A stretch of 62,674 nt of DNA, from the NCBI GenBank assembly GCA_949025205.1, contig CARMXJ010000003.1, positions 1 to 62,674 of the forward strand, given 5' to 3'. Positions 152 to 18,547 of the stretch are shown one piece after another. The notes under the pieces were generated by a model. It searched no databases. It was not told where the DNA came from and worked only from the letters and a program-made list of their open reading frames with translations. Numbering within the stretch: the stretch's first letter is position 1; each line of letters starts with the position of its first letter. The stretch comes from an uncultured Bacilli bacterium (lineage in GTDB: Bacteria; Bacillota_I; Bacilli_A; RF39; UBA660). Position numbers and translations under genes: made by a program.

Positions 152-361
152 ATGAAAAAACGGAACAACCATGGACAAGCATTAGTGGAATATGTATTAA
201 TTGTTGCAATCATTAGTGTGATTACGATTGCAGTAGTCAACTATTTTGGAGGATATGTTAAAGATTCTATTACTAAAACCTCTTGTTCTTTAGTAGACCA
301 AGAATACGTACCCGGTGCAAAACCTGGTGAGGGAGAGTGCAAAGAAAAAGAAATAGAGTAA
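152..361 (+). CDS. flp: Flp/Fap-family type IVb pilin
   Basis: Short basic leader then G|QALVEYVLIVAIISV (Flp G/xxxxEY motif plus hydrophobic helix). ATG at 152 follows RBS AGGTGGAG. The ORF-track TTG at 134 is unlikely to be the start. Confidence 0.8.
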   Translation: MKKRNNHGQALVEYVLIVAIISVITIAVVNYFGGYVKDSITKTSCSLVDQEYVPGAKPGEGECKEKEIE

Positions 362-375
362 CAAAGGGTGATAAA

Positions 376-726
376 ATGTTTTTAAATAAAAAGGGACAAG
401 CATTAGTGGAGTTTGTAATTATATTGCCCATCTTTATATTTATGATATTTGGAGTAATCGATTTAGGAAAAATTTTGTATACCAAAAACAATTTAGAAAG
501 CAAAATGGAAGAAGTAATCACTGCTTACGAAAGCGTGCCAGACATAGCAGAGTTAGAAAAGAAATTGAATTTAGAAAAAGAACACATCACCCTTGCCATC
601 GCAAAAGAAAAAGAGTACATGGAATTTAAATTAGAAAAAGAAATAGATATCGTTACACCAGGGCTAAATAGTATTCTAGGAAATCCCTACCAAATAACAA
701 CAAAGCGAGTGATATACAGTGAATAA
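376..726 (+). CDS. tadE: TadE-like pseudopilin / pilus assembly protein
   Basis: N-terminus MFLNKKGQALVEFVIILPIFIFMIFGVIDLG matches the TadE signature (GQ..VEF + hydrophobic + G.I-.G). ATG at 376 follows AAAGGGTG. Confidence 0.75.
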   Translation: MFLNKKGQALVEFVIILPIFIFMIFGVIDLGKILYTKNNLESKMEEVITAYESVPDIAELEKKLNLEKEHITLAIAKEKEYMEFKLEKEIDIVTPGLNSILGNPYQITTKRVIYSE

Positions 727-1099
727 AAAAGGGCAAACACTGATTCTTTTCGTCATTATAATTCCGGCTTTAATCTTACTTATGGCATTTGTAGTAGATA
801 CAGGAATGCTTTTAAAAGAAAACACAAGGCTTTCTAGCACAACCAAAACCATTTTAAAAACGATGTACGATGAAAAAGATAACAGTGGTTTTGAAACCAA
901 AATAAAAAATCTCTACCAAAAAAATAATATTCCAATAGAAAATATAGAAATAAGCACAACAAGCAATAAAATAGTGATTGAAAACAACTATACCATAGAA
1001 AGTATCTTCGGACGCATTATAGGAATCAAAGAGTATGCCTTAAAGATAAAAATGAATGCAACCAAAAGGGATGAAAAAATAAAAATAGAGAAAGAATAG
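719..1099 (+). CDS. TadE/TadG-like pilus assembly protein
   Basis: N-terminus (GTG)NKKGQTLILFVIIIPALILLMAFVVDTGMLL resembles TadG/TadE-like N-terminal domains. Overlaps the tadE stop by 8 nt. Confidence 0.65.
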   Translation: MNKKGQTLILFVIIIPALILLMAFVVDTGMLLKENTRLSSTTKTILKTMYDEKDNSGFETKIKNLYQKNNIPIENIEISTTSNKIVIENNYTIESIFGRIIGIKEYALKIKMNATKRDEKIKIEKE

Positions 1100-1109
1100 A
1101 GGGAAAGAC

Positions 1110-1913
1110 ATGTCAAGAACAAAAGGAAAATCAGTCTGCATATTCTCTGCTAAAGGAGGCGTAGGCAAAACGGTAACAACCATCAATTTGGCAGGAATAT
1201 TTGAACATTTAGAAAAAAAAGTATTAATTGTAGACTTAGATTTATCAAGTGGAGGAATTAGTGTTGCTCTAAACCGTGCATTTGAAAAAACAATATACAA
1301 TTTTGTAGATGATTATAACAATAACAGATACAAAGATTTTTCAAATTATATTACAAAATACGATGATTTTATTGATATCTTACCAAGTCCTAAAGACCCA
1401 CGCCAAGCAAATAAAATTGATTCCAAATACATCGATATTTTAATCGACAAAGCAGAGTCCAACTACGATATCGTTCTAATTGACACCAACCATATATTAG
1501 ATGAAATCAATATTGTTACATTAGACAAAGTCGACAATATTTTATTTGTCATGACCAATGACCCACTAGATATCAAAAACATGAAATCCCTTCTTAGTAT
1601 TTTCCATGATTCCAATATTACCAATTATAGAATTTTATTAAACAACAGTACAAATCCCTTTAAAGACTATTTTTCTATCTTTGACATACGAAACATCATT
1701 AAAGCCAATATCGACTATACCATTTCTTCTAGTTTTTACTTAAAAAACATAGACCACTATATTATGAACGGCGATGTTATCACGCTTTTAAAAAGCATGC
1801 CGACCACCTTTAATAAAGATTATGAAACCTTTATGACAATGGCCCTAGATACAATTGGAAAACCAGAAACGGAAGAAAAGGAAGAAGTAGAAGAAGGGGA
1901 TGCAAATGAATAA
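1110..1913 (+). CDS. cpaE: CpaE/TadZ-like ParA/MinD-family ATPase
   Basis: Deviant Walker A SAKGGVGKT near the N-terminus; sits between the pseudopilins and the CpaF ATPase. Confidence 0.75.
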   Translation: MSRTKGKSVCIFSAKGGVGKTVTTINLAGIFEHLEKKVLIVDLDLSSGGISVALNRAFEKTIYNFVDDYNNNRYKDFSNYITKYDDFIDILPSPKDPRQANKIDSKYIDILIDKAESNYDIVLIDTNHILDEINIVTLDKVDNILFVMTNDPLDIKNMKSLLSIFHDSNITNYRILLNNSTNPFKDYFSIFDIRNIIKANIDYTISSSFYLKNIDHYIMNGDVITLLKSMPTTFNKDYETFMTMALDTIGKPETEEKEEVEEGDANE

Positions 1914-3246
1914 AACCAGTTTAATGGATGCTTTTAATATTGAAAGAAAAAGCCCTAAAATAGATTCTGTCACAGATTATGAAGTATTTGCAGATAAAAA
2001 GCTACTTGACGAACTAAGAACTCGTATCGTTGAAAACATCATTGACAAAGAAGTACCAGAAGAAAAAGGATTAAATGAATTTATAAACGATGAAATCGAT
2101 GCAACCATTGAAGGGTATGACTTATCGAATTTAGAAAGAAGCCACTTATATAACTTAATTGATAATGAAATCAATGGATATGGACCCATTACAGAACTTC
2201 TAAAAGATAAAAACATCACCGAGATTATGGTCAATAGCCCAAATGAAATTTATATTGAAATTGATGGACAACTAATTAAAGACGAAAGTATTTCTTTTAT
2301 AAATGATGAACATATCGTAAGAACCATCCAAAGATTAATTGAACCTCTTGGAAGAACCATCGATGCGGCCAATCCAATGGTCGATTCAAGACTTCAAGAT
2401 GGGTCTCGTATCAATGCAGTAATTCCGCCGCTTTCTACCAAAGGTCCTATTATTACCATTCGTAAATTTAAAGAAACAATGGCAAGCATTGAAGACTTAA
2501 TCCGTATTGGTTCCTTAACACCTTATATGGCTAGATTTTTAGATGCCTCTGTAAGAGGAAAACTAAACATCATTGTCTGTGGAGGAACCGGAAGTGGAAA
2601 AACAACCCTTTTAAATATTTTAAGTGGCTTTATTGGTAGTCATGAAAGAATCATTACAATTGAAGATGCTGCCGAACTTCGTTTGCGTCAAGAACATGTG
2701 ATTTCTCTAGAAACAAGAGTTACCAATTACGATAGTACAGGAGAAGTAACCATAAGAGATTTAGTAAAAAATTCCCTTCGTATGCGTCCTGATAGAATCA
2801 TTGTGGGAGAAGTAAGAGGAAAAGAAGCCTTCGATATGTTACAAGCCATGAATACAGGACACGACGGTTCCCTAACAACGCTTCATGCAAACGGAGCCCT
2901 TGATGCTCTAAACAGACTAGAAACCATGGTTTTAATGAGTGGCTTAGATATTCCAATTAAAGCCATCCGGGAATACATTACCAATGCCATTGACTTAATT
3001 GTAAATATTGAAAGAATGAGCGATGGCAAAAGAAAAATTACATCTATTTCAGAAATAGAAGGGTTTGAGGAAGACCGCATAAAATTGCGTGAAATATTTA
3101 AATTTACGCCAAAAGGTTTAACCGAAACGGGAGAAGTAGATGGAGAATTTATGCTATACAAACAAACACCACACGTTTATAAAAAAATGATGGCCAGAGG
3201 AATTAACGATTTAGAAGATATGTTTGGAAAATCTACCAAGAATTAA
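1900..3246 (+). CDS. cpaF: CpaF/TadA secretion ATPase (type II/IV secretion NTPase family)
   Basis: Walker [40 protein letters not shown], His box [12 protein letters not shown]. Confidence 0.9.
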
Positions 3247-3264
3247 AAGAAAGGAGTAACCATT

Positions 3265-4269
3265 ATGAAAGAAGTTATTTTAACTACATTAATTATTCAA
3301 ATTATTTTAGTACTTCTAATAATAGGAATTCTTTTCTTTGTATTAAAACAAATCCAAGCATCAAAATTAGAAAAAAGATTCGAAGCTTTTAGTTTACAAT
3401 CCAATAAAGACGTAGAAATTTCTTTTTTTGACCAATTATCCCTTTCTATATGGAAGAAAATTCACAAATTATCCAAAATTTTTAGCCATTCCGCTGTATT
3501 ATGCGACTATGCCCAAAAATACGACCGTTATATTCCCTATGAAGAACGAGAAAAAAAAGAAAATATGGATTATATCTCGATTAAGTTTGCTTTAGGAATT
3601 CTATTTATTCTTTTAAATATAATAAGCTTAGTCTTTTCAGCTCATGTAAATACAATGACTTGTTTACTTTCTTTCCTAATTGGTTTTTTCTTGCCAGACA
3701 TTGCCCTAGCCATAAAATTTAAAAAGAAAAGAAAACAAATTGAAGAAGATTTACTAAAAGCCATTATTATCATGAACAATAGTTTTAAATCCGGAAGGAA
3801 TATTATGCAAGCCATTCAAATTGTAAAAACAGAATTAGAAGGACCAATTGCCGATGAATTTGGAAAAATATATCTAGACATTACCTATGGTTTAAGCTTA
3901 GAAGTAGTTTTTAATCGTTTTTATGAAAGAGTAAAACTAGAGGATGCCAAATACATTGCTTCTTCCTTAACTTTATTAAACAAAACAGGAGGAAATATTG
4001 TAAGTGTTTTTGAAAGCATTGAAAAATCATTCTTTGATAAAAAGAAATTACAAAATGAAATGAATAGTCTTACCGCTGCCAGTGTCTTTGTATTTCGAGT
4101 ATTAGTGGCATTACCTCTTATTTTTACGCTTGTGATTTTTATTTTAAATCCTACTTATTTTAATCCATTGTTTCAGTCAGGAATCGGCATTTTTATAACT
4201 TTAATAATCTTATTTTTGTACATAAATTATATTGTTGTCATTAAAAAAGCAATGAAGGTGAAGATGTAA
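3265..4269 (+). CDS. tadB: TadB-like type II secretion system F-family membrane protein
   Basis: N-terminal TM, central cytoplasmic helical domain, C-terminal TM pair; position directly after cpaF. Confidence 0.75.
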   Translation: MKEVILTTLIIQIILVLLIIGILFFVLKQIQASKLEKRFEAFSLQSNKDVEISFFDQLSLSIWKKIHKLSKIFSHSAVLCDYAQKYDRYIPYEEREKKENMDYISIKFALGILFILLNIISLVFSAHVNTMTCLLSFLIGFFLPDIALAIKFKKKRKQIEEDLLKAIIIMNNSFKSGRNIMQAIQIVKTELEGPIADEFGKIYLDITYGLSLEVVFNRFYERVKLEDAKYIASSLTLLNKTGGNIVSVFESIEKSFFDKKKLQNEMNSLTAASVFVFRVLVALPLIFTLVIFILNPTYFNPLFQSGIGIFITLIILFLYINYIVVIKKAMKVKM

Positions 4270-4973
4270 TGAAAAAAAACAAGCATTTTATACACAAAAT
4301 ATATAGACAAAAAACCATAAAACGAATTCAAAGTAAGATGAAGCTTTTAGGCAATAGTCCGAAATATGATGAAGCAACATTCTTAAATACAAGATTAATA
4401 CTAGCAACACTTTTGTTTTTAGCCCTTTTAATATTATCAAAACATGGATTTATTTTAGCGCCAATCTTAACCATTATATTCTGGCTTTTCTGCGAAACAT
4501 TTATTTTGGATATTCCTATTAAAAAAAGAGGAAAAAAATTAGAAGAAGAATCTATATTCTTTTTTGAAGTATTGGTCTTAACTCTAGATTCTAGCAGGAA
4601 TTTAAAAGGAGCTCTGGAACTTACCACTAATAATATTGATAGTGAACTAGCAAGTGAATTTAAACAAACATTAGAAGAAGTAAAATTAGGGAAAAGCTTT
4701 ACTGAAAGTCTAGAATCCATGAAGGAAAGAATCCCTAGTGATACTATCAAAAATATTATTTTAAATCTAACCGAATCGAGTATATTTGGAAATAGCATCA
4801 CTGCTTCTTTAAATAACCAATTGGATTACTTAAGAGATAAAAAAATGTTGGAAATAAAAGCAGAGATAGCCAAACTGCCAACCAAGATAAGTGTATTATC
4901 CGTCGTGTTTTTTATCCCCATTATGTTACTTATCATTCTAGCCCCTGTTTTAGTAGAATTTTTAATTGGATAG
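4269..4973 (+). CDS. tadC: TadC-like type II secretion system F-family membrane protein
   Basis: Same architecture as TadB; ATGA-type overlap with the tadB stop. Confidence 0.7.
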   Translation: MKKNKHFIHKIYRQKTIKRIQSKMKLLGNSPKYDEATFLNTRLILATLLFLALLILSKHGFILAPILTIIFWLFCETFILDIPIKKRGKKLEEESIFFFEVLVLTLDSSRNLKGALELTTNNIDSELASEFKQTLEEVKLGKSFTESLESMKERIPSDTIKNIILNLTESSIFGNSITASLNNQLDYLRDKKMLEIKAEIAKLPTKISVLSVVFFIPIMLLIILAPVLVEFLIG

Positions 4974-5084: not shown

Positions 5085-5666
5085 ATGGAATTATTAAAAG
5101 AAGAAATGAATCTGAAACAAGAATATGCTTTTATAAATATGACAGAAGAAGAATTTTCTTCAATACTTAAGATTGCTAAAAAAGACAGTCAATTTGAAAA
5201 AGCATTTAAAAAATTAATAAATAGCTATTTAGAAGAAAATATGAGTCTTACCATTATGGTAAATTATTTAAAAAATATAAAATGGAATTCTCATACTTCA
5301 ATAAAGGTACTAAAAGAAAAATTAAATAGCTTTTTTAAAATGTTAGATGATGCTTGTTATGTATTAACACCCAGCGATGCTGAGGCACTTTTAGAACAGC
5401 CTATTTTAAAAAAATTATTTGAAAAATATTTTAGTGATAAAAAAGAAATAGAAGAAAAGGTGTTAGATCGTTTTACAGATAATAATACACAATTAGAAAT
5501 CCTTTGTGATAAATATATGGAACAAAATAAGATACTAAAATTGGTAATAGAAGAGGAAAACGAAAATATAAATAGCATTTATTACCAAGAAATCAGAAAA
5601 TCAAAATTACTAACAGCGGAACAAGAAATAGAACTAGGAAAAAGAATTGTAGAAGGAGATGAATAA
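5085..5666 (+). CDS. N-terminal fragment of a sigma-70 family factor (unique N-domain plus region 1.2), ended by an in-frame TAA
   Basis: C-terminal end reads IYYQEIRKSKLLTAEQEIELGKRIVEGDE*, which is canonical region 1.2. Same reading frame as the 5694 ORF. RBS AAGGAGG lies before ATG 5085. Confidence 0.75.
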   Translation: MELLKEEMNLKQEYAFINMTEEEFSSILKIAKKDSQFEKAFKKLINSYLEENMSLTIMVNYLKNIKWNSHTSIKVLKEKLNSFFKMLDDACYVLTPSDAEALLEQPILKKLFEKYFSDKKEIEEKVLDRFTDNNTQLEILCDKYMEQNKILKLVIEEENENINSIYYQEIRKSKLLTAEQEIELGKRIVEGDE

Positions 5667-5693
5667 GCCGCGAAAATATTAGCAGAAGCTAAT

Positions 5694-8600
5694 TTGCGTT
5701 TGGTTGTTAATATCGCCAAACGTTATGTAGGAAGAGGTCTATTATTTGATGATTTGGTACAAGACGGAAATGAAGGCTTAATGACTGCTGTTAAGAGATT
5801 CGATTATAAAAAAGGTTGCAGATTTTCTACATATGCTATGTGGTGGATTAGACAGGCTATTACAAGAAGTCTTGCAAATAATGCTAGAACCATTCGTATC
5901 CCTGTTCATAAGGTCGATAGAATTAACAAATTGATCAAAATTGAAAATAATTTGAAAGCGGAATTAGGGTATGAACCAGATGATATCGAAATTGCCGAAA
6001 AAATGCAAATTTCAGAAGCAGAAGTAAAAAAGATAAAGAAAATTATCAAAGATAATCAAACAGTTTCCATTGACCAAAAAATCGGAAAAGATGAAGATTC
6101 TGGACTGATAGATTTTATACCAGATTCTAAAAATCTTTTTGAAGAAAATGTGATAGAAGAATTAAATACATCAGAAATTTTAGATAAGGCCCAAAAAGCC
6201 GTAACTCCTCGTGAATATCAAGTTTTAGATTTGCGATTTGGCATTAGTGATGGGTGTCCAAGAACACTTGAAGAAGTTGGTAATATAATGGGTGTTACAA
6301 GAGAAGCAATCCGCTTAATACAAAATAAAGCACTTAGAAAATTAAAGAATAGCCAACGCATCAAAAAATTAAATCCATATGAAACAGAAGCCAAAGAAGC
6401 AATAAAAATAAAAGAAACAAATATTTCTAATGTAGAAATAAAAGAGTTTCAAATTCAAGATATTGAAATAAATGCATTTATCTATCTATTAGAATTATTT
6501 CCAAGGGAAGATAAAAGGTTGTATTGTAAATTAAAAGGAATAAATTTACATAACAAAATACTACTTAATGTGGCCGGTAAACAATTAAGTTCATGGGAAG
6601 CAAGTTTTTTAGAAAGTGTAGAAACAGATTTAAAACAAATGCACCAATTATATTCAAAATTAAAACACCAAAATCAAGAGGAAGAAAAACAAATGCTTTT
6701 ACATTATATTTCTAAAAAATCTCTACGTTTTCGCTATTTTAATCAAACGTATAAAGAGTTATACCATGCTGTAAGATGTCTATCTACAAAAGAACAAAAG
6801 GTACTATACAAAAATCATGGAAAAGACTTGCTTTCTATAGCAAATAAAACCGATAAACTTGAGAACGTTTATAAAAAGTTAGATGCTATTTTTAGAGGAG
6901 AAATTAAAATACCTTCTCCACAAGAATATCTATGCAGTATGTTAGAAGAAAACAATATAGATTTAATAAAAAAAGAGGTTTCGAAATTAGATATAGAAGA
7001 AAGAAAAGTATTTTATGAAGTACATGGCCTAAATTTAAACGATAATAACTATACAGAAAAAGAGAGTCTATACGAAGCTATTTTAAAGAAATTAAAAAAA
7101 TCTTTGCATTTTTTGAAACAGGAAAATGAACTTATAAAACTAATAAAAGCACATCCTGAGATTTCTCTAGACTTATGGCACACACTAATAAAAAAACTAC
7201 CTTCCTACTACCAAGAAATAGTCTATTTTAAGAATGGGAAAGGAGTACTATTAGAAAACAATCCATTTCCTAAAGAAGATTATCAAAAAAGATACACCAC
7301 TTATCAAAAAGCTATAAAAAAATTAAAAGATATGGTAGAACATCTAGAAGAGACTTTAGAACCATTCTATTCTCAATTTGAAGGAAACACAAAAGAAGAA
7401 ATTTTTTGGGTCTTATTAAGTTTGAATGAAAATAGAATGAATATCATTTTTAAACATTATGGTGAAAATTTAAAAGAAAAGATTACCCGTAATGAAGAGA
7501 ATCAATCAATAGTAACACAAAACTACTATAATGCAATGCAAGAAATAAAAAACAAATTAAACAACAATTCTTATTCTAGTTTTATAGAAAAATTTAAAAA
7601 AGAAGAGTACGAACCAGTTTTAAAAATTTTAACAAGAGAAGAACTAACGATATTTAACCTATTTCATGGAGAAAATCATGATAAACATTTATTAGTTGAA
7701 CAAAATGATAGTTATACGATTGCCTACTTATGTAAGAGTTATAAACGAATTATTTCTAAACTAGAAGCAGAAATAACCTTACAAAAGAAACAAATGCAAA
7801 AGCAATCTAAGAAAGAAAAAATAACCTTAAGAACTCTTATAGAAGCACATCCAGAAATTGATTTAAAAACATGGTTAAATATTATAAACAGATTATTTCC
7901 AAAAGAAAAAGAGGCTGTTTTTATAGTAAATGGCCAAAATTTAGAATTAGACAATGAAGTTGATTTTCTATCAGACCCAACTCTTTACCAAAATTATAGA
8001 CGTGCGATAAAAAGAATAAAACAAATGATAGAGAATTTAGAAGAGTTTTTAAATCCCTTTTTCTCACAATTTGAAGGACACACAAAAGAAAAAGTTTTTT
8101 GGGCTCTTTTAAAAATTAACGAAGAAAATATAAAAAGCATTTTTCTTTGTTATGGAGAAAATTTAGATGAATTAAATATATATGACAAAGAGAATAATCT
8201 AACAAAAAACGCTATTCATTATCGATCTATAAAACAAATTAAAAGTGAACTTACTGGTAAAACAATTAAAAAAAGTTTTATCGAAAAGTATAAAAAAGAT
8301 GAATTTGAACCATTTTTAAGTGAATTAACAGAAGAGGAACTGAGAATATTTATTCTATTTCATGGAAGTAATTACAACACACACTTATTTGTAGAAAAAG
8401 ATGAACACCACACTATCTCCTATTATTATTGGGAATATCAAAGAATCATCTCCAAATTAGAAGAAAAGATAAAAAACAAACCTAAAAAAGAAATTAACGA
8501 AAATAAATTACAATTATTAATGGCTGAGCATCCTGAAATTTCATTAGAGTTATGGCATAAACTTATTAGGAAATTAATTGAAAAGCAACAAAATGCCACT

Positions 8601-9917
8601 TATCAAAAACACGGAAATACACTAGAAGAAAATAATCCTTATCCAAAAGAAAATTATACTATTTTTTATAGCGAGTACCATAGTGCAATAAAAAATTTAA
8701 AAAAGATGGCAGAGCATTTAGAAGAAACTTTAGAACCATTCTATTCTCAAATGGAAGGACACTCTAAAGTAGAAGTTTTTTGGGAATTCCTAAGTTTAAA
8801 AGAAAATCAAAGAACAGTTGTCTTTAATCGAAATGGTGCAAATTTAAATGAAATACTCATTTATGATGCACAAGGAAAAACTACATCTACACCAACTTAC
8901 TATTATATAATTACAACTTTAAAGAAGAGACTAAAAGAATCTAAAAAAAGAAAAACTTTTATTGAAAAATATACAAAATATCAAATTACACAACACATAG
9001 ATATTTTAAATTCTGAAGAATTACGAATTTTTAATTTATTTCATGGAGAAAATTACAGTGAATACTTACTAGTAGAAGCTGATAGTGAACATACTCTTTT
9101 CTATTATTGTGAGGAGTATCAAAAAATCACTTTTAAATTAGAAGAAGAGATTAATAGTCTATCAAGCAAAAAACAAAAAAGAACTAAGTCAAAACAAATA
9201 AGAAAAACGCAAAAAGTAACAATAGATGAAAAAATAGCTGTAAATAACGATTATCTTGCAAAACTAGGCTGTTCTTTAGAAATGGCACTGGAATGTATAG
9301 AGTTATTAGCAGAAGAAGAAAAAAGAATAATTTATATGAAACGTGGAAAATTTTTAAATGAATTTAATCCTTATCCAAAAGATAGACCATTTTCTTACTA
9401 TAAAAAATTAGAAGAGCGAGCAACGAATAATTTAAAACATATAATTAAAGATAAAATAAAAAAAGAAAAAGAAAATCAAATGCAAGCATTAGTAGAAACT
9501 GAAAAGAAACAAGAGGAAATCAAAAAGAGTCTAATGGATGAAAAATTATCTTTGAAAAAAGCAGAGATATTTAATGATTTATTTAAAAAATACCAAGAGA
9601 TTGTAAATACAAAAATATTAGTAGATTGCATTGATAAGATAGTAGTAAACATTCGCGTATCAAATAGTGAATATATGCATGCAATTGAAAATGAATTATT
9701 TGCCAATTTAGCAAACCAATACAAAGAAAATAGGAATACAGAAGAAGGATATATTTTAATGGAACAAATAAAAGAAGTGTTTTTGATGCAAATTAAAACT
9801 AAAAATCCTTTATATTCTAAAGAAAAGATTGCAAACGCGATTGAAGAAGTATTTAAATCTTATAACGGAGAAAGAAGTTTTACAGAGGATATTATGCGCT
9901 ATTTAAAAAAGTCTTAA
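5694..9917 (+). CDS. Sigma-70 family RNA polymerase sigma factor (regions 2-4) with a ~1,150-aa repeat-rich C-terminal extension
   Basis: [59 protein letters not shown] (region 2). Region 4 reads [49 protein letters not shown]. The conserved sequence continues upstream of the annotated TTG to codon 5667 (AAKILAE). Confidence 0.85.
7140..9155 (+). repeat. Three tandem ~230-aa (681-696 nt) intragenic repeats in the sigma-factor tail
   Basis: Units start at 7140 ([13 protein letters not shown]), 7836 ([13 protein letters not shown]) and 8517 ([13 protein letters not shown]). An identical 23-mer CTTTAGAACCATTCTATTCTCAA occurs at 7354-7376 and 8728-8750. Confidence 0.85.
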
Positions 9918-9981
9918 AAATATTAAGGCTTTTTCTTTGAATAGAATACATGTGTATGGTACAATGAATATGGTGATACTT

Positions 9982-10533
9982 ATGTTTAGTTTTATAACAG
10001 GAAAAGTAAAAGAAACAGAAAAGAATTATATAACCTTAGAAAATAATGGAATCGGCTACCAAATATTTGTAGCAAATCCCTTTAGTTTCGAATTAGATAC
10101 CGAAAAAACGGTTTATATCTTTACTCATATTAGAGAAGATGAATTTTCTTTTTATGGCTTTAACACCAGAGAAGAAAAAGAACTTTTTTTAAGATTAATC
10201 AACGTAAAAGGATTAGGTCCTAAAATGGCACTTCCTATGTTTGCTTTAGGAAGTGTATCAGGAATTATGGATGCCATTGATAGAGAAAATATTTTGTATC
10301 TAACAAAATTTCCTAAAATCGGCGAAAAAATAGCTCGTCAAATCATATTAGATTTAAAAGGAAAACTTACCCAAAGTGAAAATGTAATAGCGACCGGTTT
10401 TGATGAAGTAGTAGAAGTACTAGAAAGTTTAGGATATAAAAATAGTGATATTAAAAAAATACTTCCAAAACTTTCTTCTGACTTAAAAATAGAAGACCAA
10501 GTAAAGGAAGCATTAAAACTTTTATTAAAATAG
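9982..10533 (+). CDS. ruvA: Holliday junction branch migration complex subunit RuvA
   Basis: MFSFITGKV...GIGYQIFV N-terminus; HhH region [13 protein letters not shown]; followed by ruvB. ATG at 9982 preferred over the ORF-track start. Confidence 0.9.
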
Positions 10534-10544
10534 AAAGGATTATT

Positions 10545-11549
10545 ATGGAAGACAGAATTATAAATGCGGAAGAAAAAACAGAAGATGTATTTGAAAAAAA
10601 CATTCGCCCTCAAGAATTAGATGAATATATTGGTCAAAACGAAATTAAAGAGAATTTACGTGTATTTATCAAAGCGGCTTTAATGCGAGAAGAACCTCTT
10701 GACCATGTCTTGTTATATGGCCCTCCAGGCCTAGGAAAAACAACTCTTGCGCATATTATTGCGAACGAACTTGGAACCAATATAAAAACAGCCTCTGGTC
10801 CCTCTATCGAAAAAACAGGAGACTTAGCTGCTGTACTTTCCACTTTAGAGCCGGGAGATGTATTATTTATTGATGAAATACACAGGATGCCAAAATTTAT
10901 TGAAGAAGTTTTGTATCCAGCCATGGAAGACTTTGAAATTGATTTAGTAATTGGAGCAGAAGGAAAGTCAAGAAACATTAAAATTGACTTGCCTCCCTTT
11001 ACGCTTGTTGGAGCAACCACAAGAGCGGGAGATATATCCTCTCCTTTGCGCGACCGTTTTGGTATTATTTCTAAACTAGAATATTATAAAAAAGAAGAAC
11101 TAGAAAGCATTATCAAAAGAACAAGCCGTGTTTTAGATATGCCCATTGAAGATGATGCTGCAAAAGAATTAAGTGGCAGATGTAGAAAAACACCACGTAT
11201 TGCGAATCGCTTATTTAAAAGAGTTCGTGATTTTGCTTTAGTAGAGGGCGATAGTACGATTACAAAAGAACTGGCTATAAAATCATTAGAACGTTTAAAA
11301 GTCGATAAATACGGATTAGATTCCATTGACATTGAATACTTAATGAGTTTAATTACCAAATTTAACGGTGGTCCAGTTGGTGTAGAAACCATAGCAACAT
11401 CAATTGGAGAAGAAGTATCTACCATTGAAGATGTAGTAGAACCATTCTTACTACAAGAAGGATTTATCAAGCGTACTCCAAGAGGTAGAGTAGCAACGGA
11501 AAAAGCCTACGACCATTTAAAAATAGATCATAATACAAGTATATTTTAA
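10545..11549 (+). CDS. ruvB: Holliday junction DNA helicase RuvB
   Basis: [14 protein letters not shown] Walker [10 protein letters not shown] Walker [16 protein letters not shown]. Confidence 0.95.
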
Positions 11550-15570: not shown

Positions 15571-16374
15571 ATGAATAGTAAAGAAGCTTGTCAATTTTTA
15601 AAAACTATATTTTTAGCTTATAAAGAAAAAAAGAGCAAAAATGAAATTGATATGAATAACTTAAATTTATTTAAAAATATAATTAATATATATTTAACGA
15701 ATGTAGAAAAACAAGATATTAATATATTAATTCAAGATTATAAAGAAAAATATATTTTCAATGAATCCAGAATAGAAGAAAATAATTCTTTAGAAGAACA
15801 ACTAGGCATTGGAGAAGTATACGATTTTATTCAGTCATTTGACTTTAAAAAAGATTACTTCAATTTATTTACAACTTCACTTATAATCCATTCTAAGCTC
15901 TATTCAAAATGTGCTTGCCCTGAATTTGGTGGGAAATTAAGGGATACTACAGTTTATTTATTTGATACAAACTATGAAGTCATGGACCCAATGCTTTCTC
16001 AAAAATATTTTAATAGTTTAATTCCAATCTCATCTAAGATTTTCGATAGTCTTCAAAACGAACCGGGGGGGGGGTACTTTACGTACATTGATAAATGTAT
16101 TATACAAACCACAGATTTAATAAAAGCACAACCGTTTGCAGATGGAAACAAAAGAACATTTAGAGCACTTTTAAATCTGCTATTAAAAAAAATTAAAATA
16201 CCGCCTGTAAATATAGAATTAGATGAAAAAGACCTTTACAAGAATGCGCTTTTAAAAGCAATAAAAGAAAACGATTACACAAAAATCATTCATTTTTATT
16301 ATTATAAGATATGCGATGCTATTATTACACTAGATATCGAGCAATTATTAAATAATCACGATTTTAAAAGATAA
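15571..16374 (+). CDS. Fic/Doc-family protein with a non-canonical (Gln-for-His) active-site motif
   Basis: QPFADGNKRTFRAL compared with the Doc-type HxFx(D/N)(A/G)NKR motif. Contains a G10 tract upstream of the motif. Confidence 0.7.
   Translation: MNSKEACQFLKTIFLAYKEKKSKNEIDMNNLNLFKNIINIYLTNVEKQDINILIQDYKEKYIFNESRIEENNSLEEQLGIGEVYDFIQSFDFKKDYFNLFTTSLIIHSKLYSKCACPEFGGKLRDTTVYLFDTNYEVMDPMLSQKYFNSLIPISSKIFDSLQNEPGGGYFTYIDKCIIQTTDLIKAQPFADGNKRTFRALLNLLLKKIKIPPVNIELDEKDLYKNALLKAIKENDYTKIIHFYYYKICDAIITLDIEQLLNNHDFKR
16065..16074 (+). repeat. G10 homopolymer inside the Fic-like CDS (currently in frame)
   Basis: ccg ggg ggg ggg encodes PGGG; a 10-G run in a very AT-rich genome. Confidence 0.9.
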
Positions 16375-18024: not shown

Positions 18025-18093
18025 ATGACATCTCTCATGCTATAATATGTGGCTGTTCAGGCCTAATATTAAGCATGAAAGGAGAGATGTCAT
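18025..18093 (+). promoter_or_regulatory. 5'-leader stem-loop sequestering the tnpA RBS and start codon
   Basis: ATGACATCTCTC+ATGC (18025-18040) pairs with GCAT (18073-18076) and GAGAGATGTCAT (18082-18093). The second arm includes part of the SD and ATG 18092. A TATAAT lies in the loop (18041-18046). Confidence 0.65.
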
Positions 18094-18547
18094 GGCTAAA
18101 AGTTTAGCACACACAAAATATATGTGCAAGTATCATATAGTATTTATCCCAAAGTATCGAAGAAAGGTAATATATAATAAACTAAGAAAAGATATACAAG
18201 GCTATATAAAAGATTTATGCAAATGGAAAGGTGTAGAGATAATAGAAGGACACATGATGTCAGACCATGTACATCTATTGTTAGAAATACCGCCAAAAAT
18301 GAGTGTATCGTATTTTATGGGATATCTAAAAGGAAAGAGTAGCCTAATGATTTTTGAGAAACATACAAATTTAAAATATAAGTTTGGAAATAGGAATTTT
18401 TGGGCAACAGGATATTATGTAAGTACAGTAGGGTTAAATGAAGCGACGATACGAAAATATATAAGAGAACAAGAAAATGAAGATATAATGGAAGACAAAC
18501 TATCAAAGAAAGAATACATAAACCCTTTCAAGGGTAAATTAAAGTAG
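18092..18547 (+). CDS. tnpA: IS200/IS605-family Y1 (HUH) transposase TnpA
   Basis: YHIVFIPKYRRKV, HUH motif DHVHLLL, catalytic-Tyr region FWATGYYVSTVG. Confidence 0.95.
   Translation: MAKSLAHTKYMCKYHIVFIPKYRRKVIYNKLRKDIQGYIKDLCKWKGVEIIEGHMMSDHVHLLLEIPPKMSVSYFMGYLKGKSSLMIFEKHTNLKYKFGNRNFWATGYYVSTVGLNEATIRKYIREQENEDIMEDKLSKKEYINPFKGKLK

Follow-up and report, generated by a model that had tools for sequence, protein, structure and literature searches.

The stretch of DNA analysed here, referred to as the window, comprises 62,674 nucleotides of contig CARMXJ010000003.1 from an uncultured Bacilli bacterium (assembly GCA_949025205.1). On its forward strand, it contains a sigma-70 family gene region (positions 5085-9917) of 1,611 codons, which is split by an in-frame TAA at codon 194. 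Past the sigma core, about 1,187 residues continue in the same frame. This tail consists of 13 modules of about 70-75 amino acids, three before a set of macro-repeats, nine within it and one after it, followed by a C-terminal domain. The gene has the following features.

5085-5666, + strand: open reading frame (ORF) a, 193 amino acids, with an acidic N-terminal domain and sigma region 1.2, closed by the premature TAA
5577-5663, + strand: sigma region 1.2 (Pfam Sigma70_r1_2, E 7.8e-11)
5664-5666, + strand: in-frame TAA between regions 1.2 and 2.1 (..[23 protein letters not shown]..; ..[29 protein letters not shown]..)
5667-9917, + strand: ORF-b, the same frame, open over 1,416 codons after the TAA
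5697-5891, + strand: sigma region 2 (Pfam Sigma70_r2, E 2.2e-20)
5919-6134, + strand: sigma region 3 (Pfam Sigma70_r3, E 4e-14)
6201-6347, + strand: genuine sigma region 4 (Pfam Sigma70_r4, E 7.4e-16), the sole stretch of the protein that Pfam recognises as such
6462-7124, + strand: modules P0, P1 and P2, outside the macro-repeats (9.9, marginal, 23.4 and 23.4 bits)
7122-7820, + strand: macro-repeat 1 (modules A1, B1, C1; residues 680-912), delimited by self-comparison
7821-8504, + strand: macro-repeat 2 (modules A2, B2, C2; residues 913-1140), 44% identical to repeat 1
8505-9200, + strand: macro-repeat 3 (modules A3, B3, C3; residues 1141-1372), sharing 46% identity with repeat 1 and 40.5% with repeat 2
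9243-9458, + strand: terminal module Z, the top-scoring module (52 bits)
9459-9917, + strand: C-terminal domain of about 150 amino acids and stop codon, the most conserved part of the subfamily, matching no known family

Few bacterial proteins are as well studied as the sigma factors, whose architecture, ending at region 4, is regarded as settled. The head of the window protein conforms to it. Regions 1.2, 2, 3 and 4 follow one another in the usual order (Pfam E values from 8e-11 to 2e-20), in agreement with the canonical core that an earlier note, written from the sequence without database searches, had recognised, and the core closes with ...[17 protein letters not shown]. As in the primary-like group 1 and 2 sigmas RpoD and SigA, the -10 reading motif is retained ([15 protein letters not shown]), and an acidic domain (residues 1-165, isoelectric point 5.0) occupies the position of region 1.1. 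This domain is common to 13 family proteins at E values of 1e-13 to 1e-32, and its alignment across the family is highly variable. In contrast to RpoD and SigA, the window protein has an altered region 4.2 (TREAIRLIQ), about 1,190 extra residues and an interrupting stop, and sigmas of its type are dispensable, since their genomic slot is empty in sister species. The best NCBIfam matches of the core are RpoD models, below their cut-offs. Against the RpoD equivalog NF006666 (cut-off 572 bits), the stop-repaired protein scores 323 bits and its syntenic relatives 263-461 bits. Because the RpoD cut-offs are not reached, and because the sigma is absent from sister genomes, the protein is probably an accessory, RpoD-like member of the sigma-70 family.

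The earlier note had counted at least 13 modules in the tail, and an independent profile arrives at the same number. Built from 154 module instances of other proteins, with none from the window protein, it finds 13 modules at 9.9-52.1 bits. Twelve of them reach 23 bits or more. The first is marginal at 9.9 bits, and the best of 1,000 shuffled tails scores 8.9 bits. The genuine region 4 of the window protein is not matched by this profile. The motif described in the earlier note, as rendered here, occurs nine times in the tail (mean 0.06 and maximum 2 in shuffles). Self-comparison also bears out the three tandem macro-repeats of about 230 amino acids, which cover nine modules. The claim that they arose by recent duplication does not hold. 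The macro-repeats are only 40-46% identical at the protein level, and their DNA is 77-79% identical only in patches of at most 170 nucleotides, so the duplication must be old. Tandem Repeats Finder reported no tandem repeat at the DNA level, with a longest period of 500 nucleotides, the macro-repeats measuring about 690.

In the AlphaFold2 model of macro-repeat 1, the chain is all helical (pLDDT 74.9). Module A3, modelled with 60 family modules as the alignment, reaches a pLDDT of 96.5 and a pTM of 0.85. The predicted helices span residues 2-9, 15-23 and 27-37 and a long stretch from 52 to 71. An ordered loop of 14 residues (38-51), which often contains proline in the modules, lies where the first helix of a helix-turn-helix (HTH) would be. 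The structure check proposed in the earlier note, for repeated three-helix HTH bundles, thus yielded repeated helical modules, but with four helices and without the first HTH helix. Nine modules out of 13 have neutral or acidic isoelectric points (5.1-6.6, compared with 9.4 for the true region 4). The linkers between the macro-repeats are lysine-rich, and the tail as a whole carries a net charge of +9.

Profile comparisons indicate that the modules are degenerate derivatives of sigma region 4 that arose by duplication. When profiles seeded on the module types A, B and C were compared with a profile of the genuine region 4 (28 sequences), the HH probabilities were 89.5, 92.2 and 94.6% (P 2e-6 to 7e-8), with region 2 and 3 controls below 1%. 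Over all hhalign comparisons, the values were 81-95% (P 1e-5 to 7e-8), and the region 2 and 3 controls did not exceed 1.1%. The alignment with region 4 is limited to the two helices of the 4.1 half (..L..rE..vl.lR.G). Other members of the family provide intermediates. The window-type modules are linked to short repeats elsewhere in the family at 98.9% and to the HTH-bearing modules of relatives at 97% (8e-11), and the latter match the genuine region 4 at 98.6% over 60 columns. As whole proteins, P0016 (47.6 bits), P0021 (52.3 bits) and P0035 have repeats above the Pfam r4/r4_2 threshold, and the tails of P0005, P0024 and L017 contain bona fide copies of region 4. Among the ten PDB folds nearest to the model of module A3 in Foldseek, eight are sigma4 domains, none of them at a significant score (E 6-10, TM 0.26-0.57). 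The likeness to region 4 that had been noted by eye is therefore upheld by profile-profile comparison and by the intermediates, but not by a direct Pfam match, and the HTH helix is lost. According to the model, the modules would retain the 4.1 helices (L..eE..ii.l.hG) together with a long last helix, and would have lost the first HTH helix. Pfam HTH families do not match any window module, and the module model lacks the HTH of region 4.2. Foldseek searches with a three-module model, and with a single module against BFVD, gave no significant match.

Complete region-4 tandem arrays exist in the same family (L010, P0035, P0053, P0076 and P0084). They are homologous to the window modules (97-99% HH probability), but their units keep the full HTH and pass Pfam Sigma70_r4, whereas the window modules do neither. 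The array in L010 (7265-8887, metagenome-assembled genome (MAG) contig CAOKUH010000010.1) shares the genomic slot and the conserved C-terminal domain of the window protein. It is a stand-alone protein of 541 amino acids with five tandem, near-identical, true copies of region 4 (Pfam 119 bits), each followed by an IWLEWN motif, and has no sigma core. Its gene lies directly upstream of ruvA and has no tad operon upstream. A separate observation concerns P0021, in which a repeat of the short type (residues 186-210) weakly matches the C-terminal domain of the Mycoplasma MG284/MPN403 family, below the NCBIfam threshold (E 1.5e-4, 21.7 bits against a cut-off of 37.3). This may hint that the MG284/MPN403 family is sigma4-derived as well.

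The window protein is not a singleton. An exhaustive HMMER scan with the macro-repeat profile identified 84 representatives of 50% identity clusters at E values up to 1e-3, 35 of them at E values up to 1e-10. Many of the family proteins have 900-1,700 amino acids and 3-11 matched stretches. A subfamily with intact ORFs (P0005-P0008, P0012-P0015, P0017 and P0020) combines the window-type N-terminal domain, the RpoD-like core, the module tail and the C-terminal domain. Word-index homology searches retrieved only the query itself for the tail, and the query and the L005 variant for ORF-a. The word-index search with the module alignment A5 and the GTDB scan with patterns of the C-terminal domain gave no match. 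Neither the two terminal domains nor the modules are covered by an entry in Pfam, NCBIfam, PHROG, PADLOC or the PDB, and searching PDB sequences with profiles of the terminal domains yielded nothing informative. None of the ten cluster representatives that were looked up is given a name in any source, and full-text literature searches did not retrieve a description of such proteins. The statement in the earlier note that no such sigma had been described agrees with Pfam, NCBIfam, the PDB and the full-text literature, and has to be amended in that the protein belongs to a sizeable family. This family appears to be undescribed and rapidly evolving, and its C-terminal architecture would be unprecedented among sigma-70 proteins.

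Variation within the family affects both the number of modules and the head. P0013, P0088 and P0090, which form one 90% identity cluster at the L084 locus, are full-length alleles of 1,447, 1,351 and 1,174 amino acids that differ only in how many near-identical terminal modules they carry, with the caveat that repeats may have collapsed during assembly. P0010 (L094:2034-5645) and P0015 (L089:7001-11071) occupy the same slot between tadC and ruvA, and their tails are about 66% identical over 424 codons, but their heads differ. P0010 has only regions 2 and 4 in a short head, and P0015 has the N-terminal domain and regions 1.2-4, a difference that suggests head swapping or else a large deletion. 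For this pair, the only one tested, the ratio of nonsynonymous to synonymous substitution rates (dN/dS) is about 0.26 over the 424 module codons and 0.14 over the C-terminal domain, values that are approximate because dS is 0.85-1.0. They suggest that the tail is under purifying selection and functional in intact relatives. In L092 (7001-15096, an ERZ1029111 contig), two giant genes stand in a row after tadC, followed by an ftsW-like gene and spoIIP. The first of the two, directly after tadC, encodes P0002 (1,607 amino acids), which has many short sigma4-like repeats and lacks regions 2 and 3, and the second encodes a sigma of 1,090 amino acids with regions 2, 3 and 4.

The genomic slot of the sigma gene is defined by its neighbours, for which we used the gene table of contig L001, offset by 72 nucleotides from the window.

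152-4973, + strand: tad/flp pilus operon with flp, tadE, one unknown gene, a cpaE/tadZ-like ATPase gene, tadA, tadB and tadC
1110-1913, + strand: cpaE/tadZ-like ATPase gene, with tadA extending to 3246
3265-4269, + strand: tadB (Pfam T2SSF)
4269-4973, + strand: tadC (Pfam T2SSF)
9937-11549, + strand: ruvA and ruvB, directly downstream of the sigma gene, the right border of the variable slot

As the earlier note had pointed out, the sigma gene adjoins the Tad pilus operon on the same strand, and it starts 111 nucleotides 3' of tadC. Its proposal to check homologues for co-occurrence with tad was fruitful, as the order tad-sigma-ruvA is also present in 11 further loci (L008, L009, L012, L013, L017, L018, L022, L023, L084, L089 and L094). 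In the interval between tadC and ruvA, promoter-like sites are not enriched, and a terminator-like site was not found. In a scan anchored on RuvB, the window falls among uncultured gut MAGs of the "Tenericutes"/Bacilli, whose hosts are rabbit, mouse, chicken and Hadza people. Where RuvB is 85-92% identical, the species differ in tail length, from no module at all to 13. L011, L019 and L020 have nothing in the slot, and neither does L087, which is more distant (RuvB 76%). In L012, L022 and L009, the slot is taken by an RpoD-like sigma that has the window-type N-terminal domain but no tail, and in L024 by a tail-less short head consisting of regions 2 and 4. L013, L017 and L018 have sigmas with 1-6 modules, and L023 and L084 have giant intact versions of 1,407 and 1,451 amino acids. 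In L015 (4083-4343), only a remnant of the C-terminal domain (87 amino acids) is left. Together with the four empty slots, this remnant points to repeated loss, or gain, of the sigma cassette. In L008 (7290-8000, an SRR29305861 contig), which represents a second lineage, three or more frameshifts disrupt the gene, none of them outside the N-terminal 230 amino acids, and the remainder is intact as an ORF of 869 amino acids from region 2 to the C-terminal domain. Elsewhere in the window, a Fic-domain gene (15571-16374, weak Pfam match) and an IS200-like Y1 transposase gene (18047-18547) lie a few kb past the ruvAB-queA-tgt block in the L001 gene table.

The earlier note had treated the gene as a single giant ORF. 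The sigma with a long tail in the same frame stands, but the single ORF does not, owing to the TAA at 5664-5666. ORF-a starts with an ATG at 5085, which is preceded by a strong Shine-Dalgarno sequence (AAGGAGG). The first start candidates of ORF-b are TTG 5694 and TTG 5700, neither of them with a convincing Shine-Dalgarno sequence, and gene callers split the frame into proteins of 193 and 1,405-1,407 amino acids. The stop was found in all eight related contigs that were checked, which represent three MAGs and no fewer than four sequencing runs. Seven of the stop-bearing contigs derive from the runs ERR3199521, ERR3199689, ERR3199584 and ERR3199536 and from two MAGs, and the third stop-bearing MAG differs by two bases in 7.6 kb. 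In the window, TAA closes 36 of the 46 large ORFs, which indicates that the genetic code is standard. In view of this normal role of TAA and of the eight concordant contigs, both a read error and a recoded codon can be discounted, and an alternative genetic code was rejected because TAA predominates among the stop codons of the window. Intact relatives have a glutamate at the stop position (GDEEAKK), and the simplest origin of the stop would be one GAA-to-TAA change (a single G-to-T substitution) after codon 193.

The 5' end of one related contig is anomalous. L005 (1-890, ERR3199584_4367) begins with sequence for Csm3-like and Csm4 N-terminus-like type III CRISPR proteins (assigned by eye), which runs in frame into the N-terminal domain of the sigma near residue 37 and probably reflects a chimeric assembly. 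The window contains no sequence matching the Csm part of L005.

Taken as a whole, we consider it rather probable that the gene belongs to a family of accessory sigmas with a sigma4-derived tail, residing in a slot subject to gain and loss, that the copy is broken here, and that the tail has a docking or regulatory role. As an ancestral step, sigma region 4 would have been duplicated into modules, nine of which form three old A-B-C macro-repeats. The sigma head of intact relatives would dock on RNA polymerase. The tail, which would no longer read DNA as region 4 does, may serve as a multivalent protein-docking or cis-regulatory extension. Its chief effector would be the C-terminal domain, perhaps with a link to tad expression. 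For intact family members, we infer that such an extension is likelier than a DNA-binding array, because the modules are non-basic and have no HTH, and because the C-terminal domain is the most conserved piece. As for the copy in the window, it has a premature stop relative to intact orthologues, as expected of a pseudogene, and ORF-b is fully open. We lean towards a recently inactivated gene, and the full-length protein is probably absent in this strain.

Several observations weigh against this interpretation. The stop-bearing contigs are near-clonal (at least 99.8% identical), so that the age of the mutation cannot be judged. ORF-b is open over its entire length in a genome of about 27% G+C, L008 is likewise broken in the N-terminal part with an intact remainder, and heads that naturally lack the N-terminal domain and region 1.2 exist in P0010 and L024. 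Together, these points leave room for a functional truncated product. The accessory status presupposes a canonical sigA elsewhere in these genomes. With respect to the descent of the modules, none of the 13 window modules is matched by Pfam Sigma70_r4/r4_2 at E values up to 10, the module profile does not match any sigma among PDB sequences, and the sigma4 matches in Foldseek are individually non-significant. Finally, the docking or regulatory role is arrived at by inference.

It is possible, though doubtful, that the gene is split but functional. ORF-b would be translated from an internal start (TTG 5694 or 5700) or by termination and reinitiation, and act as a sigma without regions 1.1 and 1.2 or as a tail protein, and ORF-a may act separately. 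The intact ORF-b, the confinement of the L008 frameshifts to the N-terminal part, the short-headed relatives and the natural stand-alone tail in L010 all speak for such a product. It would, however, lack half of helix 2.1, and TTG 5694 lacks a Shine-Dalgarno sequence, in contrast to the AAGGAGG of ORF-a. Moreover, in near-clonal strains the intactness of ORF-b may only mean that the mutation is young, and both substitutions between the strains (two in all, too few to judge constraint on ORF-b) are nonsynonymous. Production of the full-length protein by programmed readthrough or recoding of the TAA is very unlikely. The stop is reproducible, and the frame downstream is open and in register with the sigma alignment, as this explanation would have it, but the prevalence of TAA among the terminators of the window and the plain glutamate of intact relatives argue against it, there is no conserved stop at this site in diverged orthologues, and L008 is broken differently. 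That the tail is a separate gene misjoined to the sigma gene, the possibility named in the earlier note, can practically be dismissed. The probably chimeric 5' end of L005 speaks for it, but eight contigs, obtained from different runs and with different assemblers, agree in the junction of core and tail, and many diverged intact orthologues have the same architecture. For practical purposes, misassembly of the tail is refuted by this shared junction and by the intact orthologues.

The earlier note had offered three functions for the tail, namely binding of multiple DNA sites, docking of anti-sigma factors or activators, and tethering of RNA polymerase. DNA binding is the least likely of the three, because only the 4.1 half aligns with region 4, a loop replaces the HTH helix, and the modules are mostly neutral or acidic. 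An array of sigma4-like DNA-binding domains contacting several DNA sites would fit the origin of the modules from a DNA-binding domain, the relatives with complete region-4 HTH arrays, the lysine-rich linkers and the positive net charge of the tail. Nevertheless, we regard it as improbable, given the confidently modelled loop and the failure of every module to match a Pfam HTH family. A comparably slim chance is left to the tail as a decoy or sponge of sigma4 mimics for region-4 binders, such as phage anti-sigma factors, activators or the beta-flap, in which case an arms race would explain the turnover. The presence or absence of the gene, its copy-number and head-type variation among sister species, the stand-alone array of true sigma4 copies in L010, and the retention of the sigma4 half that does not read DNA are in line with a decoy. 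Against it, the tail has no match among defence systems (PADLOC) or PHROGs, relatives in phages and IMG/VR were searched for and none were found, the linkage is to tad and ruvAB and not to adjacent defence genes, and selection on the one pair tested is purifying, not positive.

For the preferred docking or regulatory extension, the best functional analogy may be found among those extracytoplasmic function (ECF) sigmas that carry an extension at the C-terminus. These extensions comprise about 100-200 amino acids and are SnoaL-like, TPR or Cys-rich. In both cases, an activity-modifying module is fused in cis at the C-terminus instead of being a separate anti-sigma factor. ECF41, ECF42 and ECF56 SigG1 (with a SnoaL_2 domain) are examples of ECF sigmas with regulatory C-terminal extensions (PMC7730460). 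The extended ECF sigmas have sigma2 and sigma4 heads and a single extension domain, whereas the window head is RpoD-like with regions 1.2 and 3 (P0010 and L024 have regions 2 and 4 only), and up to at least 13 sigma4-derived modules and a novel C-terminal domain are appended here. The window protein does not qualify as an ECF sigma with an extension, because of these additional head regions and because its tail contains no Pfam domain. MzaA of the MZA anti-phage system (NCBIfam NF041931, PADLOC PDLC02203) is also a long sigma-70 family protein, whose models score 247 bits (NCBIfam) and 159 bits (PADLOC) on the core of the window protein. However, the match is limited to the generic sigma core (247 bits compared with a cut-off of 800), the extra length of MzaA is N-terminal and does not consist of C-terminal repeats, and none of the partner genes mzaB-E lies near the window gene, which is flanked by tad and ruvAB.

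More tentatively, the arrays might be a portable device of multivalent tail and C-terminal domain, which is carried on different sigma heads or alone. Such a device could tether polymerase to a Tad-pilus-linked structure, or sponge region-4 binders (anti-sigma factors, activators, phage takeover proteins), and rapid birth and death of modules would tune their number.

The immediate consequence concerns annotation, as the window copy should be labelled interrupted, and not as a protein of 1,610 amino acids. Its broken state tempers the significance of the finding, as does the derivation of function from sequence and models. Nevertheless, the family departs from the rule that sigma factors end at region 4, in that up to at least 13 region-4-derived modules are appended. 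The tail is kept on sigma heads of differing architecture, intact region-4 arrays also stand alone, and the whole cassette is gained or lost between sister species beside a pilus operon. If the descent proposed here is true, the tail would be an example of a DNA-binding domain recycled into a repeat scaffold. If the tail docks partners or tethers polymerase, it would represent a new way to regulate or localise transcription, in gut bacteria that form a large and uncultured group.

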